From IMG/VR virus record IMGVR_UViG_3300045596_000094, positions 160,001 through 224,000 of that record: a DNA stretch of 64,000 nucleotides. The stretch is one strand, 5' to 3'. The notes under the pieces were generated by a model. It made no database searches. It was not told where the DNA came from and worked only from the letters and a program-made list of their open reading frames with translations. This document shows, in pieces, positions 5,765 to 35,163 of the stretch. Position 1 is the first letter of the stretch. Each line of letters begins with the position of its first letter. The DNA comes from a virus (taxonomy: Duplodnaviria > Caudoviricetes). A program made the translations under genes and the position numbers.

Positions 5765-5782
5765 CTATAGGATGCTAAACGC
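5765..5782 (-). promoter_or_regulatory. Putative middle/nvRNAP promoter GCGTTTAGCATCCTATAG
   Basis: Identical 18-mer at 23989-24006; both copies sit just upstream of a start codon. Confidence 0.55.
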
Positions 5783-12955: not shown

Positions 12956-15082
12956 TTAACCGTAGAAGTTAAATGGTCGTGCTTCACCGATGTTGTAGAT
13001 TGAACCTTGAAGCTGTGAAGAAGCCTGTTGATACAAACCAGAACCTACGTTTGGATCTACCATTACAGAAGACCAATCTTGGATCGTTTGAGTGTAGACT
13101 TGTTGTTGAGAGTTTAACAAAGTATTGTTAGAGTTCAACGTGAAGCCTGTCTTCTCGATTGCTTCAACCAATGCTGTAACGAAAGCAGCAGAAAGGTCAA
13201 ATTTAGTTGTATAACCTTTTACATGTACTTCTGAGCAAAGCGCACGGAAGATACGTAGGCGGTTATCTAAACGCACCAATGGTTCTTCGATCGTAGTTAC
13301 AGTCGTAGCCAAGTAGTCCTGCACTAATTGAATATTACCAGCGGCAATGTTCAAAATAGCAAGTAAGTCTAGTTCACGTAAATCGCGGTATTCACCTTCT
13401 GGGTTTTTGTAGAAACCAGTATGGTTACGGTCACGAGTTTCACGAACAACAGGAATACCAGCTGCTGCTTCAATAGAAACACCACATTTCGCCGCGTAGA
13501 TAGAACGGAAACGACCACCCGTTAAGTTATCTGCCGCATTTACGATTGCTGCGTTTGCATTGCTACCATCAGTACCTGCAGCTTTAGCAAATACATCCAA
13601 TAACCAGCCATTAGAAGAAGCTTGTTCAATTTCTAATGTATATACTGGGCTTGGAGAAATTGCTGTTGCGATTAACTGTTGAAGTTGTTGATCAGATTCA
13701 ATAGTTAAAAGACCGGGCTGATTATCTTGAGCCAAGTGAGGAAGCTGCCAGCCCAAAGCACCAAGGTTACGTAAGTTACCACCAGTAGAACGGTTGTAGC
13801 TATCGCTCCACTGAATACCATAGCCACGGTTACGGTTCAGTGTAGTTAAGTTCGCGATACCCAATACTGCAAATTCTAAAGCAGAACCAGTCATACGTGA
13901 AACCAACTGAGTGATTGTAATACGTGGAACGTAATGGTATTGCGGTTGACCTTGTTGGAACATTGGGAAGTTGTTCGCTGCACCAAATGTTGATTGTGGA
14001 GCTGTGTATAGCAAATCTACATACGCAGCAGAATCAGTTAATTCGCGCTGAGTATTAGATTGAATCACTTGTTGCTTAGCGCTACGATACTGCATGATCA
14101 ACTTCGCAGTAATGTCAGAACGCACTGGTAAACCTGTTGCAGTGTGTTTGTCTTCATTTACAGCAAATTTACTTACGATAGAAACGTTTGGATCAGTTTT
14201 AATTTTATCCAAGTTAAATGCGTAAGCTTGGGCTTGAGGATCGCAACGACGAAGAGTAGCATCGATTGCGTCAGCAGCTTCGTTCAAGATTTTAGTTACT
14301 GTAATTTCGTCACGTACATTTGTTTGGCTGTAGATAACCTGCAGACCAGCATCAACAATGTTTGTTTCGTTTTTGTAGTAACGAGAAACTTCTTTGTGGA
14401 CCAAGTGTTTCAAATCATCTTTAAACGCATCAACCGGAGTAAGAATGATTTCAATTACATTGCCATGAACTTGCTGTGTTAAAGTTTCCAATGGTGGTCG
14501 TGAAGTTTCTAAGATCCAGCTTTGAACTGCAATTGTATTTTTGTTGTTTACTGATTGGAAAGTAGAAACAGCAAGAACAGTAAAGCTACCAGTTACCGAT
14601 TTCGGTACAACATGGAAGTTTAATACGCCTTGAGAGTTTGCACCACTAATCGTAGATTTGTCCTGAATTTCTTTTACCATTTTCAAAAGGGCAGCTGCAT
14701 CAGTATCGCCTTGGTCAGCTACTTGGAAACGTGGGTTATAATGGTCGAACATCATTTGAGCTGTGTTTGCGAAAGAGTTAGACATTGAAGGAGTCCCTTG
14801 ATATTGAGTTTGCGTTTGAGTTTGTTGAGCGTTAGTGTTATTGGTAGTAGTACGCTCCTGACTTGCTACCTTAGTTGCCTGAGCCATTGCTTGACCCATT
14901 GCCGTTTGCGGAACTGGTTCCACAACTGGAGAGACAGTTGCTTTTTCTGGAACTGGTTCAACCTTCGGTTCTGGTTGTGGCTCAGCGGTTCGTTCCTGAT
15001 GCTCGGCTTGTGCCTGAGCTTGAGCTAATGCAGCAGCATCTGCTTCACGTTGTTTCTCATTAGCTTTCTTTTGAACTGCCAT
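12956..15082 (-). CDS. chmA: Chimallin, phage nuclear shell protein (phiKZ gp54-like)
   Basis: About 700 aa; GLPVRSD, Y.PRI.IT, LRNLGALG and GFY....G..RDLRELD.LA motifs; directly upstream of the nvRNAP beta' gene; strongly biased codon use; GGAG RBS before MAVQKK at 15082. Confidence 0.88.
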   Translation of the reverse strand: MAVQKKANEKQREADAAALAQAQAQAEHQERTAEPQPEPKVEPVPEKATVSPVVEPVPQTAMGQAMAQATKVASQERTTTNNTNAQQTQTQTQYQGTPSMSNSFANTAQMMFDHYNPRFQVADQGDTDAAALLKMVKEIQDKSTISGANSQGVLNFHVVPKSVTGSFTVLAVSTFQSVNNKNTIAVQSWILETSRPPLETLTQQVHGNVIEIILTPVDAFKDDLKHLVHKEVSRYYKNETNIVDAGLQVIYSQTNVRDEITVTKILNEAADAIDATLRRCDPQAQAYAFNLDKIKTDPNVSIVSKFAVNEDKHTATGLPVRSDITAKLIMQYRSAKQQVIQSNTQRELTDSAAYVDLLYTAPQSTFGAANNFPMFQQGQPQYHYVPRITITQLVSRMTGSALEFAVLGIANLTTLNRNRGYGIQWSDSYNRSTGGNLRNLGALGWQLPHLAQDNQPGLLTIESDQQLQQLIATAISPSPVYTLEIEQASSNGWLLDVFAKAAGTDGSNANAAIVNAADNLTGGRFRSIYAAKCGVSIEAAAGIPVVRETRDRNHTGFYKNPEGEYRDLRELDLLAILNIAAGNIQLVQDYLATTVTTIEEPLVRLDNRLRIFRALCSEVHVKGYTTKFDLSAAFVTALVEAIEKTGFTLNSNNTLLNSQQQVYTQTIQDWSSVMVDPNVGSGLYQQASSQLQGSIYNIGEARPFNFYG

Positions 15083-15153
15083 TTGAGATCTCCAAATAAT
15101 AAGTTTATACAACAATATTGATCAATATTGAATAGTAACTCTACCATTCAAGT

Positions 15154-23988: not shown

Positions 23989-24047
23989 CTATAGGATGCT
24001 AAACGCTGTAATTAATTACACGTATTCAGAGTGATAATGTGTATCTA
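23989..24047 (-). promoter_or_regulatory. Tandem early (24034-24047) and middle-type (23989-24006) promoters driving the small-ORF array
   Basis: TAGATACACATTAT-N5-TGAAT and GCGTTTAGCATCCTATAG. Confidence 0.6.
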
Positions 24048-32409: not shown

Positions 32410-33018
32410 TTATTTAGACGCGTTGTTGTGGTGATTGCCTGTGGTTTGAGCATCTTTAAAATGTCGGTAATTATCCACATGAATGAAGCCCAACAGATTC
32501 TCTCCACGCCAACGGTAGATATCTTTAATCTCTGGAGCGTAATCTGGAAGCTCAACACCCCAGATACGGTCGAAAGGTGAAGCTTCTACAAATAGAACGT
32601 TTTCAGGTTGTTTCAGTAACCAGGCTTTGAGGTCATTGTTTTGATCGAACTTAGCGCGACAAAGATCTCGCACAATCGTGAATTTATGCTGATCCCAGAT
32701 ACGGGCAATAAATCCAGATACTTGACGACCTAAGCGTTTTTGATTTGGTGGCCATTTCTCTTCAAGGATCTTCTTAGCAGTTCCAGGATCGTTGAATAAC
32801 ATGGCTTTCTTCCACATCATCCCCTGCTCAACTGAGTTGAATGTTTGTCCTTCGAATGTGAATTTTCGAATGTAATGATTGGATAAGCAGGAATTATCAA
32901 TTCCATGTTTTCCTTGTTTCGCACCCCAGAAAAACACCTTAGTGGAATTAGACCCTTCTGGATCGAATCCGTATTTATTTAAATAAGCTTCTAGAGTTTC
33001 GTTATATAGTTGAGGCAT
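32410..33018 (-). CDS. NADAR family protein (YbiA-like N-glycosidase / ADP-ribose hydrolase)
   Basis: FFW, CLSN.Y, F.SVEQ.MM..KA.LF.D, K.LGR.V, KF.QN, EASPFDRIWG and W.GENLLG motifs. Confidence 0.92.
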   Translation of the reverse strand: MPQLYNETLEAYLNKYGFDPEGSNSTKVFFWGAKQGKHGIDNSCLSNHYIRKFTFEGQTFNSVEQGMMWKKAMLFNDPGTAKKILEEKWPPNQKRLGRQVSGFIARIWDQHKFTIVRDLCRAKFDQNNDLKAWLLKQPENVLFVEASPFDRIWGVELPDYAPEIKDIYRWRGENLLGFIHVDNYRHFKDAQTTGNHHNNASK

Positions 33019-33045
33019 CTCGTTTTCTCCAAATTAAAACGGCAT

Positions 33046-33169
33046 AAAAAGAAACTCTATGGGAATATCCCCATAGAGCCTGATTGTAAATCATTAGAGA
33101 TAAGGTAAGGTTACCCGACCTTACCCGTTCAGTTATCCATGGAATAAATAACTAAGCGGTTTATCTCTA
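33046..33169 (-). ncRNA. Candidate structured small RNA / leader (three-way junction plus terminator)
   Basis: Closing stem 33095-33103/33161-33169, two internal hairpins with G-U pairs on the minus strand, CATCCTATAG promoter motif at 33167-33176, terminator 33055-33078 with U tract. Confidence 0.55.
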
Positions 33170-33189
33170 TAGGATGGTTGTCACTGTTA

Positions 33190-33573
33190 TTAATTACACA
33201 ACTTCTTGTAATTCAAACGTTCATTAAAAGAAGCTCTGGCACGACTAGCATCAAAACGATTACAGCGCTCTTCGGCTACCTGTAAATCGTAAGCCATTTG
33301 AATTTCCTCACGGCTAAATTCATTCATTAGCGCACAGATTCGATCCACCTGCTGTTCCTGCGGTTCGAGTTCTTCAGCAGTTATATCGTAGGCTTTATAG
33401 ATAACCTGTTTATTTGCGTAATTGGCAAACTTTGTACCCAACTCCCAAGAATTGATCTGAGTGGAGGATAGTCCAGCTCGTGCAGCTATTTCCTTATTAG
33501 TAAATCCTTTACTGATTCTTAAAGCACGGAGACGAATGGGTTTCCAATGTTTCAAAATGAGTTCGCGTTTCAT
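33190..33573 (-). CDS. XRE-family helix-turn-helix protein
   Basis: LRALR...GFT.KEIAARAGLS...INSWELG. Confidence 0.85.
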   Translation of the reverse strand: MKRELILKHWKPIRLRALRISKGFTNKEIAARAGLSSTQINSWELGTKFANYANKQVIYKAYDITAEELEPQEQQVDRICALMNEFSREEIQMAYDLQVAEERCNRFDASRARASFNERLNYKKLCN

Positions 33574-33884
33574 TTCATTTGCTCTCTTAGCTGGGACTCA
33601 ATAACGGAGTTAGCCATCATGATGTGTTTTGGGTCAACGGTAGCGAGTAATTTTCTCACTATCTCAACATCGCTATCCATTACTTGAATGGCTTGATTAC
33701 CGCCTAAAATAGAACTAATATTTTTTATAATCTTCTTACTCACGGGCTTAGTGCCATTTTCAATCATGGACAGATAAGTTTGTGTTATGTCCAGAAATTG
33801 ACTCACATCCTTTGCTGTTTGTTTGCTGAGGATTCTTAGAGCATGTAGTTTAAATCCTTGTAAAGTCTTTGAAGTAATTGTCAT
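33570..33884 (-). CDS. XRE-family helix-turn-helix protein
   Basis: LHALR....T.KDVS..L.IT..YLSMIENG; ATGA-coupled to its paralog. Confidence 0.85.
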   Translation of the reverse strand: MTITSKTLQGFKLHALRILSKQTAKDVSQFLDITQTYLSMIENGTKPVSKKIIKNISSILGGNQAIQVMDSDVEIVRKLLATVDPKHIMMANSVIESQLREQMK

Positions 33885-33917
33885 GGGTTTCTCCTAATAA
33901 TAATAAGGGCATAAATA

Positions 33918-33942
33918 CCTCATCCCTTTTCGGGGATGAGGA
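33918..33942 (-). terminator. Terminator after thyA
   Basis: CCTCATCCCC / GGGGATGAGG stem followed by TTATGCC on the minus strand. Confidence 0.7.
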
Positions 33943-33954
33943 TTTGTCGTTAAC

Positions 33955-35163
33955 TTATACAGATATAGGGAACTTAATCACACCTTGGTGATTATAGTTT
34001 TCTAAACCTGCGACAATGAGATCTACTGATTCTTTAGTCAAACTATCAGGGTCAGTAATGTCTACACCATCAGGGAAGGTAAACTTCGGTAATTTCGTTG
34101 GGGTACGTTTTAACTGCTCTTCCACACCTTCGAATTGATTTTCATAGATGTGTGAGTTTGCACAGGTCAATTGAAAATCACCTACAGCTAAATCACACTT
34201 CTTAGCAAGCGCATGCATCATCATTGCGTAACCCGCAATATTAAATGGACAACCCAAAGGTAGATCGTTAGAACGCATGATCAATAGACCGTTTAGCAAA
34301 CGTCGTTCGCCTGAAGTATCCACATCGAAGATAATCATCAAGTGACAAGGAGGTAATGCCATTTTCCCTTCAAGAACATTGGCATCACAACGATCCTTAG
34401 AAGTGACGATTTCAACCCCATCAACCATTTCTTTTGTGGAGTTGTCAGAAATATCGGCGGGGTTCCACCCAGACAGTATGATGCGTCGATCGTTTGGATT
34501 ATTACGAAGCTGATCTACGACTTGTTTTAGCTGATTGATCTCACGACCATCTGGAGTAGCCCATTTGATCCACTGTTTACCGTAAATTGGACCAAGGTCA
34601 CCTTCTTTACCAAAATACTTACGCTCACGTGTACTGATGTCGTATTGCGCAAGATAATCGTTTAATGACAAGGGTTCTTTGTTCTGGGTCATGAAGTTAT
34701 TTAATTCTTCATTAACCAAAACTCCACCAATTTCTTTAGTTGTACCGTTGAGTACCAGCTCATCCATAGTAGCATGATAATCGCCATACGCTGCAGCCTG
34801 TTCCTGTAGTTTGTTTAAGGCTTCTTCTACAGAGATATCTAACTTATCTGCCAAGTCTTCAGCTAAAGCTTGTTGCTCACGCGTGATCACAGAAAATACA
34901 GAGCGTGATAAACCCCATTCATCCCATACAGGGCATCCGAGAGCTCGAAACTCTTCTACAGTTGTTGCCCCTTTAAAAAAACCTACCATTTCAGCAACAG
35001 CTGCTTTGAACTGTACCTTCTTCGTAGTGAGTAAGGGAAACCCATTCTGAAGATCGCATCGGATACTTGTACCAAAAAGATACTTGGTACGCATACCTGT
35101 ACGGTTATCTTTCACTTTACCATTTTCGTAACAGTCACGTAATAAGTCTAAGTATTGTTTCAT
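33955..35163 (-). CDS. thyA: Thymidylate synthase with large insertions
   Basis: DNRTG, FPLLTTKK, WDEW, GDLGPIYGKQW, LPPCH, RSND..LG.PFN and HIYEN motifs. Confidence 0.95.
   Translation of the reverse strand: MKQYLDLLRDCYENGKVKDNRTGMRTKYLFGTSIRCDLQNGFPLLTTKKVQFKAAVAEMVGFFKGATTVEEFRALGCPVWDEWGLSRSVFSVITREQQALAEDLADKLDISVEEALNKLQEQAAAYGDYHATMDELVLNGTTKEIGGVLVNEELNNFMTQNKEPLSLNDYLAQYDISTRERKYFGKEGDLGPIYGKQWIKWATPDGREINQLKQVVDQLRNNPNDRRIILSGWNPADISDNSTKEMVDGVEIVTSKDRCDANVLEGKMALPPCHLMIIFDVDTSGERRLLNGLLIMRSNDLPLGCPFNIAGYAMMMHALAKKCDLAVGDFQLTCANSHIYENQFEGVEEQLKRTPTKLPKFTFPDGVDITDPDSLTKESVDLIVAGLENYNHQGVIKFPISV

Follow-up and report, generated by a model that had tools for sequence, protein, structure and literature searches.

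Type I 3'UTR small RNAs (sRNAs) of bacteria, e.g. DapZ and MicL, have an internal promoter and use the terminator of the upstream mRNA, and three-way junctions with two functional distal loops are known from the phi29 pRNA and from purine riboswitch aptamers. In 201phi2-1 and phiKZ, short units in which transcription starts and then terminates yield sRNAs, intergenic or derived from 5'UTRs, that were mapped by ONT-cappable-seq, including 11 sRNAs of 201phi2-1 (among them sRNA005) and an sRNA upstream of gp182 in phiKZ (PMC11512511). The late promoters of phiKZ read T-3 A T G+1, and the TATG is strictly required by the phiKZ nvRNAP in vitro (PMC7598289).

The DNA analysed here (henceforth the window, 64,000 nt) is part of a complete, terminally redundant phage genome of 269,038 bp. 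The phage is a chimallivirus, i.e. a nucleus-forming jumbo phage, as shown by its genes for a nuclear shell protein (12956-15115) and for beta-like subunits of a phiKZ-type multisubunit RNA polymerase. On the minus strand, a gap of 171 nt separates the HTH127 gene (33190-33573) from the NADAR gene (32410-33018). An earlier note, made from the sequence alone, had placed in this gap a three-way-junction RNA with its own promoter and terminator, to be read either as a stand-alone sRNA or as a riboswitch- or attenuator-like leader of the NADAR/AAA/Macro-SLOG operon. All elements that it described were located where claimed, on the minus strand, and the locus is composed as follows:

33570-33884, minus strand: HTH104, an Xre-type HTH paralogue of HTH127 that opens the transcription unit.
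33190-33573, minus strand: HTH127, an Xre/controller-protein-like HTH gene (Pfam HTH_19, HTH_3) directly upstream of the RNA.
33185-33198, minus strand: TGTAATTAATAACA, a near-palindrome of the TGTA-N6-TACA type that overlaps the HTH gene stop codon; candidate operator for an HTH dimer.
33167-33187, minus strand: promoter-like block ACAGTGACAACCATCCTATAG, whose consensus is common to the window sites and the relatives.
Roughly 33167 to 33046, minus strand: small-RNA gene of ~125 nt.
33095-33169, minus strand: three-way-junction domain, from the MFE fold, covariation in 8 variants and the independent score of variant L055.
33169-33161 with 33103-33095, minus strand: helix P1, UAGAGAUAA/UUAUCUCUA.
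33159-33125, minus strand: helix P2, in which 33159-33144 pairs with 33140-33125.
33137-33148, minus strand: loop L2, UUUAUUCCAUGG, with the core UUCCAUGG invariant in 8/8 variants.
33124-33105, minus strand: helix P3, in which 33124-33118 pairs with 33111-33105.
33112-33117, minus strand: loop L3, with CGGGUA in the window, CUGGGUAA in most of the relatives and an invariant GGGU core.
33081-33093, minus strand: linker with a small UGAUU/AAUCA hairpin peculiar to the window.
33080-33052, with a U tract to 33046, minus strand: intrinsic terminator with a 12-13-bp stem and a 4-nt loop, which covaries in relatives.
33043-33046, minus strand: TATG within TTTATGCC, a candidate nvRNAP promoter core for the NADAR operon, with G33043 as +1, 25 nt before the ATG.
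32410-33018, minus strand: NADAR gene, which leads the downstream operon and stands next to the RNA here without being its constant partner.

By RNAfold, the whole 171-nt gap adopts a three-way junction followed by a strong hairpin at -51.2 kcal/mol (z -4.72). The junction domain alone (79 nt) reaches -29.6 kcal/mol (z -5.63; 0 of 200 shuffles as good), and its minimum-energy structure equals the centroid structure. A terminator-like site was called at 33081-33052, the sole such site between the HTH127 stop codon and the hairpin, and its U tract ends (33046) 28 nt ahead of the NADAR ATG at 33018. The position given for the terminator in the earlier note was right, but its stem has 12-13 bp rather than 9 bp; the UGAUU/AAUCA stem does exist in the window, but it is the only described element that is not kept in relatives.

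The genome holds one copy of the RNA (paralogue search), which belongs to no catalogued family: the Rfam comparison proposed in the earlier note gave no match at gathering thresholds for the 64-kb window (Rfam 15). At permissive E-values the best hit was trpB (25.9 bits versus a threshold of 59), covering P3 and the terminator only, and the homologues L018, L025 and L052 (see below) gave inconsistent sub-threshold matches, mostly to the terminator hairpin. ARAGORN called 0 tRNA or tmRNA genes in the window, and the RNA has three helices, not four. On neither strand of the RNA locus was a conserved ORF found; ORFs from the loop AUG comprise 2-10 codons and are not conserved (translated by eye), and a small peptide was rejected as the product.

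No close cultured relative of the phage was found, and megablast and blastn of the RNA locus against 50,697 phage records gave no match. Protein-guided scans of IMG/VR (NADAR, HTH, AAA, ThyA) returned distant relatives or none, the RNA being absent from all of them, and the locus was identical in four other sequencing runs. The phage recurs in SRR16378896, ERR11489636, ERR11456352 and ERR11489681. The route to relatives led from thymidylate synthase (ThyA) homologues to syntenic contigs of uncultivated phages, which yielded seven more sequence variants of the RNA (ThyA 45-68% identical): L018/L019, L023, L024, L028 and L055, with ThyA ~67-68% identical, and L025 and L027, with ThyA 45-48% identical. 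Each of the seven folds alone into P1-P2-P3 and a terminator. A covariance model from the window sequence alone retrieves the close variants, and a second model retrieves L025 (22.7 bits) and L027 (20.6 bits) at the expected places and scores L055, which had been left out of model building, at 73.8 bits.

The three-way junction seen in the earlier note is thereby found again, with covariation, in all seven variants. In the alignment of eight sequences, which represent one narrow clade, standard pairs occupy 91.1% of cells and 24 of the 31 pairs have changed on both sides, a count that is inflated for P1, since the alignment was made by fitting to the model and four of its rows are 2 nt out of register at the 5' end. 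When partners were slid by 1-3 columns as controls, 35-44% of cells paired and 4-9 pairs were doubly changed; none of 500 column shuffles reached the observed pairing and covariation. The 5' shift leaves two helices unaffected: in the distal part of P2, 7 of 12 pairs are compensatory (95.8% paired), and in P3 all 7 are (91.1% paired). For P1, a TATAG-anchored comparison by eye showed swaps between G-C and A-U in both directions between the close group and L025/L027. P2 also holds three invariant tandem U-G pairs. The covariation in related phages that the earlier note had named as a check is therefore present.

The functional form is RNA of the gene-sense strand, the only strand that folds well. 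In L018 the antisense strand reaches -25.7 kcal/mol versus -36.6 kcal/mol for the sense strand, and in L025 the values are -8.6 kcal/mol (z +0.49) versus -27.4 kcal/mol (z -4.27). Nucleotide identity to L018 is 0.72 for the RNA, compared with 0.57 for the HTH gene and 0.66 for NADAR. We conclude that the gap ahead of NADAR encodes a real, conserved folded RNA, beyond chance.

Conservation is concentrated in the distal loops L2 and L3, the only invariant parts of a junction whose strands vary in length and sequence among the variants. L2 reads UUUAnUUCCAUGG in the conservation table, and its core is kept even where ThyA is 45-48% identical; L3 has GGGU in 8/8 variants and YUGGGUR in 7/8, the window having CGGGUA. 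The terminator is conserved in shape and variable in sequence, and the linker of the relatives is unpaired, 11-19 nt long and often contains UCGUC or UCGGUG. P1 to P3 would serve as a scaffold that shows UUCCAUGG and YUGGGUR to a protein or RNA partner, the RNA acting in trans.

At the same genomic place, L052 and L053 carry a larger, four-way-junction RNA (z -8.06) with a similar linker and the P3 loop ACUGGGUAG. This RNA (~170 nt; L052:11733-11925 and L053:2487-2740) has an extra arm, a CUGGGUA loop and, in place of UUCCAUGG, an L2 loop CCUCC. The covariance model did not detect it, and it is a probable distant homologue. A scan with the pattern TATAGA-N-TTTANTTCCATGG-N-GGGT returned 1 IMG/VR and 19 JGI metagenome stretches, mostly gene starts; these were rejected as chance matches, since they neither adopt the fold of the RNA nor score with the model.

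Candidate partners were sought among phage mRNAs and in E. coli rRNA. Duplex energies of L2, L3 and the linker at all translation-start regions of the phage were no better than the coding background, and the complementarity of the loops to E. coli rRNA was no better than that of shuffled loops. A pairing of UUCCAUGG with E. coli 16S rRNA positions 1411-1418 was rejected as chance, shuffled loops doing equally well. Identities of both loop motifs in 23S rRNA (691 and 710) were also rejected as chance: their structural context differs, and shuffled loops performed equally well (fractions 0.78 and 0.55). The two motifs, CCAUGGG and UGGGUAAC, lie within 27 nt of each other in E. coli 23S rRNA (691-717, helix 34 region), with weak statistics, and their joint occurrence there is probably a coincidence.

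In size, in its closing stem of 5' and 3' ends and in its two arms with conserved loops, the RNA resembles the phi29 pRNA and the purine aptamers, and as in these its loops could pair mutually (UCCA with UGGG, 3-4 bp). Unlike that of the purine aptamer, however, its junction is not conserved, and its arms are unequal (~15 bp versus 7-9 bp). A pRNA role is unlikely in view of these unequal arms and of the terminase with which the phage packages its DNA. A conserved L3-linker pseudoknot or L2-L3 kissing contact is at most a possibility: judged by eye, such pairings would comprise only 3-5 bp, are inconsistent across lineages and would join unequal arms.

The start of the RNA is marked by repeated sequence. 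The element CATCCTATAG at 33176-33167 has 3 copies in the 269-kb genome (window 5765, 23989 and 33167), each of them in an intergenic position on the minus strand, with ~0.1 exact copies expected in the window; the promoter-like repeats that the earlier note had reported at 5765 and 23989 are exact copies of it. A longer consensus, TTACAG(C/T)G(T/A)nnA(G/C)CAT-NN-TATAG, is found at window 5765 and 23989 and in the relatives L018, L023, L024, L028 and L055. TATAGA is invariant in 8/8 variants, and P1 starts at its G in every lineage. In close relatives the order is TGTA-N6-TACA, 7 nt, (G/C)CAT, 2 nt and TATAG, with fixed spacing: the palindrome stands at equal distance from TATAG as TGTA-N6-TACA in L018, L023 and L055 and as AGTA-N6-TACA in L028. 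It is not evident before TATAG in L025 or L027.

At window 5765-5782 and 23989-24020 (minus strand), an identical 18-nt proximal block, GCGTTTAGCATCCTATAG, precedes two genes, and site 23989, unlike site 5765, also has TTACA and the perfect palindrome TGTAATTAATTACA, spaced from TATAG as at the RNA locus. Of the genes behind these blocks, one codes for a 248-aa phrog_3284 protein and the other leads an array of small paralogues. Since site 23989 lies in a divergent gap, the minus-strand gene there needs a promoter, and together with the RNA site the two would make up a rare, three-member promoter/operator class. Genome-wide, TGTA-N6-TACA is not enriched (9 found versus 7.0 expected), and it was rejected as a general operator; for this reason its candidacy as an operator at the RNA locus derives from co-occurrence only.

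TATAG is TATG with an extra A, and it is mildly enriched in upstream gaps (36 versus 25.8 +/- 4.4). L052 has a canonical ACTATG at the 5' end of its four-way-junction RNA, in the place equivalent to TATAG and behind an unrelated 113-aa gene. The invariance of TATAGA, the recurrence of the block at two gene fronts and the TATG of L052 all support a start at TATAG, and transcription probably begins at or next to G33167. It would be carried out by the phage's own RNA polymerase, with TATAG as a variant of the phiKZ-type TATG(+1) core. A different, long and conserved motif, AATTAAAATATTTTCAcaTATACACTAT-N4-TTGAAT, stands before genes at window 15156, 27113 and 52059 (-) and at ~7 further genomic sites, and looks like the early (virion RNA polymerase) promoter of the phage. 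The sequence TACACTAT is intergenic in 10 of its 17 genomic copies.

With a terminator ~120 nt after TATAG, the RNA falls within the limit of 250 nt between start motif and terminator used for sRNA units of chimalliviruses. It shares with the sRNAs of 201phi2-1 and phiKZ the kind of phage (own RNA polymerases, phage nucleus), the short unit and a conserved secondary structure. It differs from them in that there is no sequence or positional homology, those sRNAs preceding a tail gene and this one following an HTH regulator in an accessory island, and in that the window RNA is known from sequence alone, with strong covariation and two invariant loops. Because units of start and termination are documented sources of sRNAs (PMC11512511), we regard it as a new family of a known kind, and the best reading is that of a new small-RNA family of a chimallivirus clade.

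Directly upstream of the RNA, a homologue of HTH127 is found in L018, L023, L028, L055 and L025; in L025 the upstream gene is 47% identical to HTH127 over 85 residues, and gene and RNA have been relocated as a pair. The upstream gene of L027 is probably homologous too, by profile comparison (hhalign probability 76%, E 2e-5). The linkage from HTH127 homologue to RNA is strict in 6/7 lineages, the exception being L052/L053, in which the upstream gene has no detectable homology. Judged by gene order, the constant neighbour of the RNA is the upstream HTH gene and not NADAR.

A single-sequence search with the HTH protein found no relatives. By profile, the best PDB matches of HTH127 are C.BclI (E 1.8e-4) and C.AhdI (2.8e-3), and Foldseek with its predicted fold (pLDDT 86.6) retrieved C.AhdI (1y7y, TM 0.79 on the target, 29% identity). 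HTH127 has the same five-helix, DNA-binding C-protein/Xre fold as the controller (C) proteins C.AhdI, C.BclI and C.Esp1396I (PDB 1y7y, 2b5a and 3clc), and beyond the HTH domain it has a conserved C-terminal long helix and a basic tail. In controller units, as at the RNA locus, a palindromic box stands just before the promoter of the next unit. The controlled unit of those systems is a nuclease gene, whereas here it would be a non-coding RNA; the candidate box TGTA-N6-TACA is unlike known C-boxes in sequence and spacing, and no restriction-modification genes are adjacent to HTH127. The HTH127 homologue of L023 (8899-9702; 267 aa in total) has a 140-residue N-terminal extension that is absent from the others.

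The distance from the HTH127 stop codon to the G of TATAG is 23 nt, and the HTH-HTH unit and the RNA end at the same terminator (33046-33080). Like bacterial 3'UTR-type sRNAs, the RNA stands directly behind a coding gene with its own promoter-like element, no intervening terminator and a common terminator. Its promoter would be of the phage-polymerase type, as opposed to sigma-70 or sigma-E, and its conserved parts are hairpin loops rather than a single-stranded seed; no Hfq-type seed was identified.

We consider it fairly probable that the RNA is a stand-alone sRNA, started at TATAG as part of a module with the HTH regulator and predicted to act in trans through its loops, and that it is no riboswitch of NADAR. 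The first of the two options in the earlier note agrees with the invariant TATAG(A), the conserved block before it, the covarying terminator, the conservation of the RNA and its single copy. The adjacent HTH protein or proteins would bind TGTA-N6-TACA before the 20-nt conserved block and so time or tune expression of the RNA. As no terminator separates the HTH genes from it, the RNA would also form the 3' end of the HTH mRNA, and it may be made in two ways: as this 3' end and from its own, HTH-controlled TATAG promoter.

The same arrangement would suit a cis-acting 3'UTR element of the HTH-HTH mRNA that protects or processes its 3' end and has neither an independent promoter nor a function in trans. 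The stretch from the HTH127 stop codon (33190) to the junction is free of terminators, the RNA stays behind an HTH127 homologue even where the pair has moved, and TATAG is weakly enriched as an upstream motif. Yet a mere stabiliser has no need of two loops that stay invariant in sequence over a ThyA range of 45-68% identity, the conserved, non-coding 20 nt ahead of TATAG are seen again in front of two genes, and the RNA of L052 has a canonical TATG at its 5' end behind an unrelated 113-aa gene. We hold this explanation to be unlikely.

Decidedly improbable, in our estimate, is a two-part switch of gene and RNA, in which HTH127 or HTH104 would be bound or titrated by the RNA. The strict linkage in 6/7 lineages speaks for such a switch, as does the conserved C-terminal long helix of HTH127 with its basic tail, but the HTH127 domain has the standard DNA-binding Xre/controller fold with no sign of RNA binding, and the L052 variant lies behind a gene that lacks detectable HTH127 homology.

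The stand-alone sRNA must also be set against the second option of the earlier note, a riboswitch or attenuator leader through which an NAD- or ADP-ribose-related ligand or a protein would control read-through into NADAR/AAA/Macro-SLOG. RNA and terminator indeed abut NADAR on its upstream side in five lineages (the window and four related ones). In L025 and L027, by contrast, the RNA lies downstream of NADAR and precedes an unrelated gene of 112-114 aa. The junction nucleotides are not conserved, and no conserved antiterminator pairing exists across the homologues: AUAGAG in the 5' region is partly complementary to the 5' arm of the terminator in the window and L018, and this is lost in L023 and L027 (by eye). 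None of the marks of a riboswitch was found, be it a conserved ligand-binding core, a conserved antiterminator or a constant 5'UTR position, and no homologue tested matched an Rfam riboswitch.

Moreover, the terminator and the TTATGCC behind it are a general cassette of this genome. TTATGCC has 29 genomic copies, and a hairpin lies at most 12 nt before 17 of them, versus 20% of random positions. In gaps upstream of genes, TATG is found in sense orientation in 82 of 135 (58.8 +/- 5.4 in shuffles; antisense 49), mostly 15-65 nt ahead of start codons. TTTATG(C/T) follows the terminator, and a TATG core lies between the RNA and the next gene in all lineages. Since the cassette recurs, TATG is sense-enriched before genes and the motif is that of phiKZ, the TATG at 33046-33043 is a good candidate for the NADAR promoter, from which NADAR and the genes behind it would be transcribed separately. 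Throughout the genome, terminator hairpins often have ATAGAG...CTCTAT arms with TTATGCC directly after them (e.g. window 33908-33941, 33041-33081 and 46633).

In favour of the leader it can be said that promoter activity of the intervening TATG is itself predicted. Nevertheless, given this TATG after the terminator, the placement in L025/L027 and the lack of a conserved pocket or antiterminator, the NADAR leader proposed in the earlier note is unsupported, and we rate it as very unlikely. Finally, it is barely credible that the region acts at the level of DNA, as an operator cluster, a cruciform or a recombination site, or that the fold arose by chance in an AT-rich spacer: the region does contain palindromic DNA, and the ATAGAG/CTCTAT arms of the phage terminators resemble P1, but compensatory changes preserve the pairs, G-U is accepted on just one of the strands and the fold is lost on the antisense strand, and this covariation and strand asymmetry refute such a reading in practice.

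The RNA sits in a variable, anti-defence-type island that extends from the thymidylate synthase to the Macro genes and contains, around the RNA, genes for NADAR, an AAA ATPase and a DarG-like Macro-SLOG protein. The gene content of this ThyA-to-Macro island differs in nearly all relatives. In a related lineage (L049:15489-16430; also L050 and L051) it holds Tad3 (Thoeris anti-defence 3, PF25185) and an AAA ATPase, without the RNA. The thymidylate synthase of the window (33955-35163) owes its length of 402 aa to a large insertion that the 266-position Pfam model lacks, and this insertion is common to ~30 phage-type homologues of 387-419 aa.

As the island is anti-defence-like (NADAR, AAA and Macro-SLOG here, Tad3 in the RNA-less relative), a counter-defence role of the RNA is possible but unsupported. 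In its fullest form, which we think quite unlikely, HTH gene and RNA would be a portable regulatory or counter-defence module, the HTH protein switching on a rare promoter class with three sites per genome and the loops of the RNA capturing a host factor, e.g. an immune protein or RNA for which they would serve as a decoy. If this were true, the RNA would be an RNA-based anti-defence element of a nucleus-forming phage.

The analysis adds a structured RNA family that is well supported: it has eight variants, these covary clearly, and a covariance model describes them. It comes from jumbo phages with a nucleus and their own transcription, in which non-coding RNAs are nearly unexplored. It also corrects a tempting view: the link of this RNA to ADP-ribose erasers is unsupported, and the testable link is that between the HTH protein, a rare promoter block with a palindrome and a two-loop RNA. 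The purified enzyme by itself does not recognise the middle promoters of phiKZ (PMC7598289). If the HTH protein drives the promoter class described here, it would offer a first way into the factor-dependent promoters that chimallivirus RNA polymerases use.
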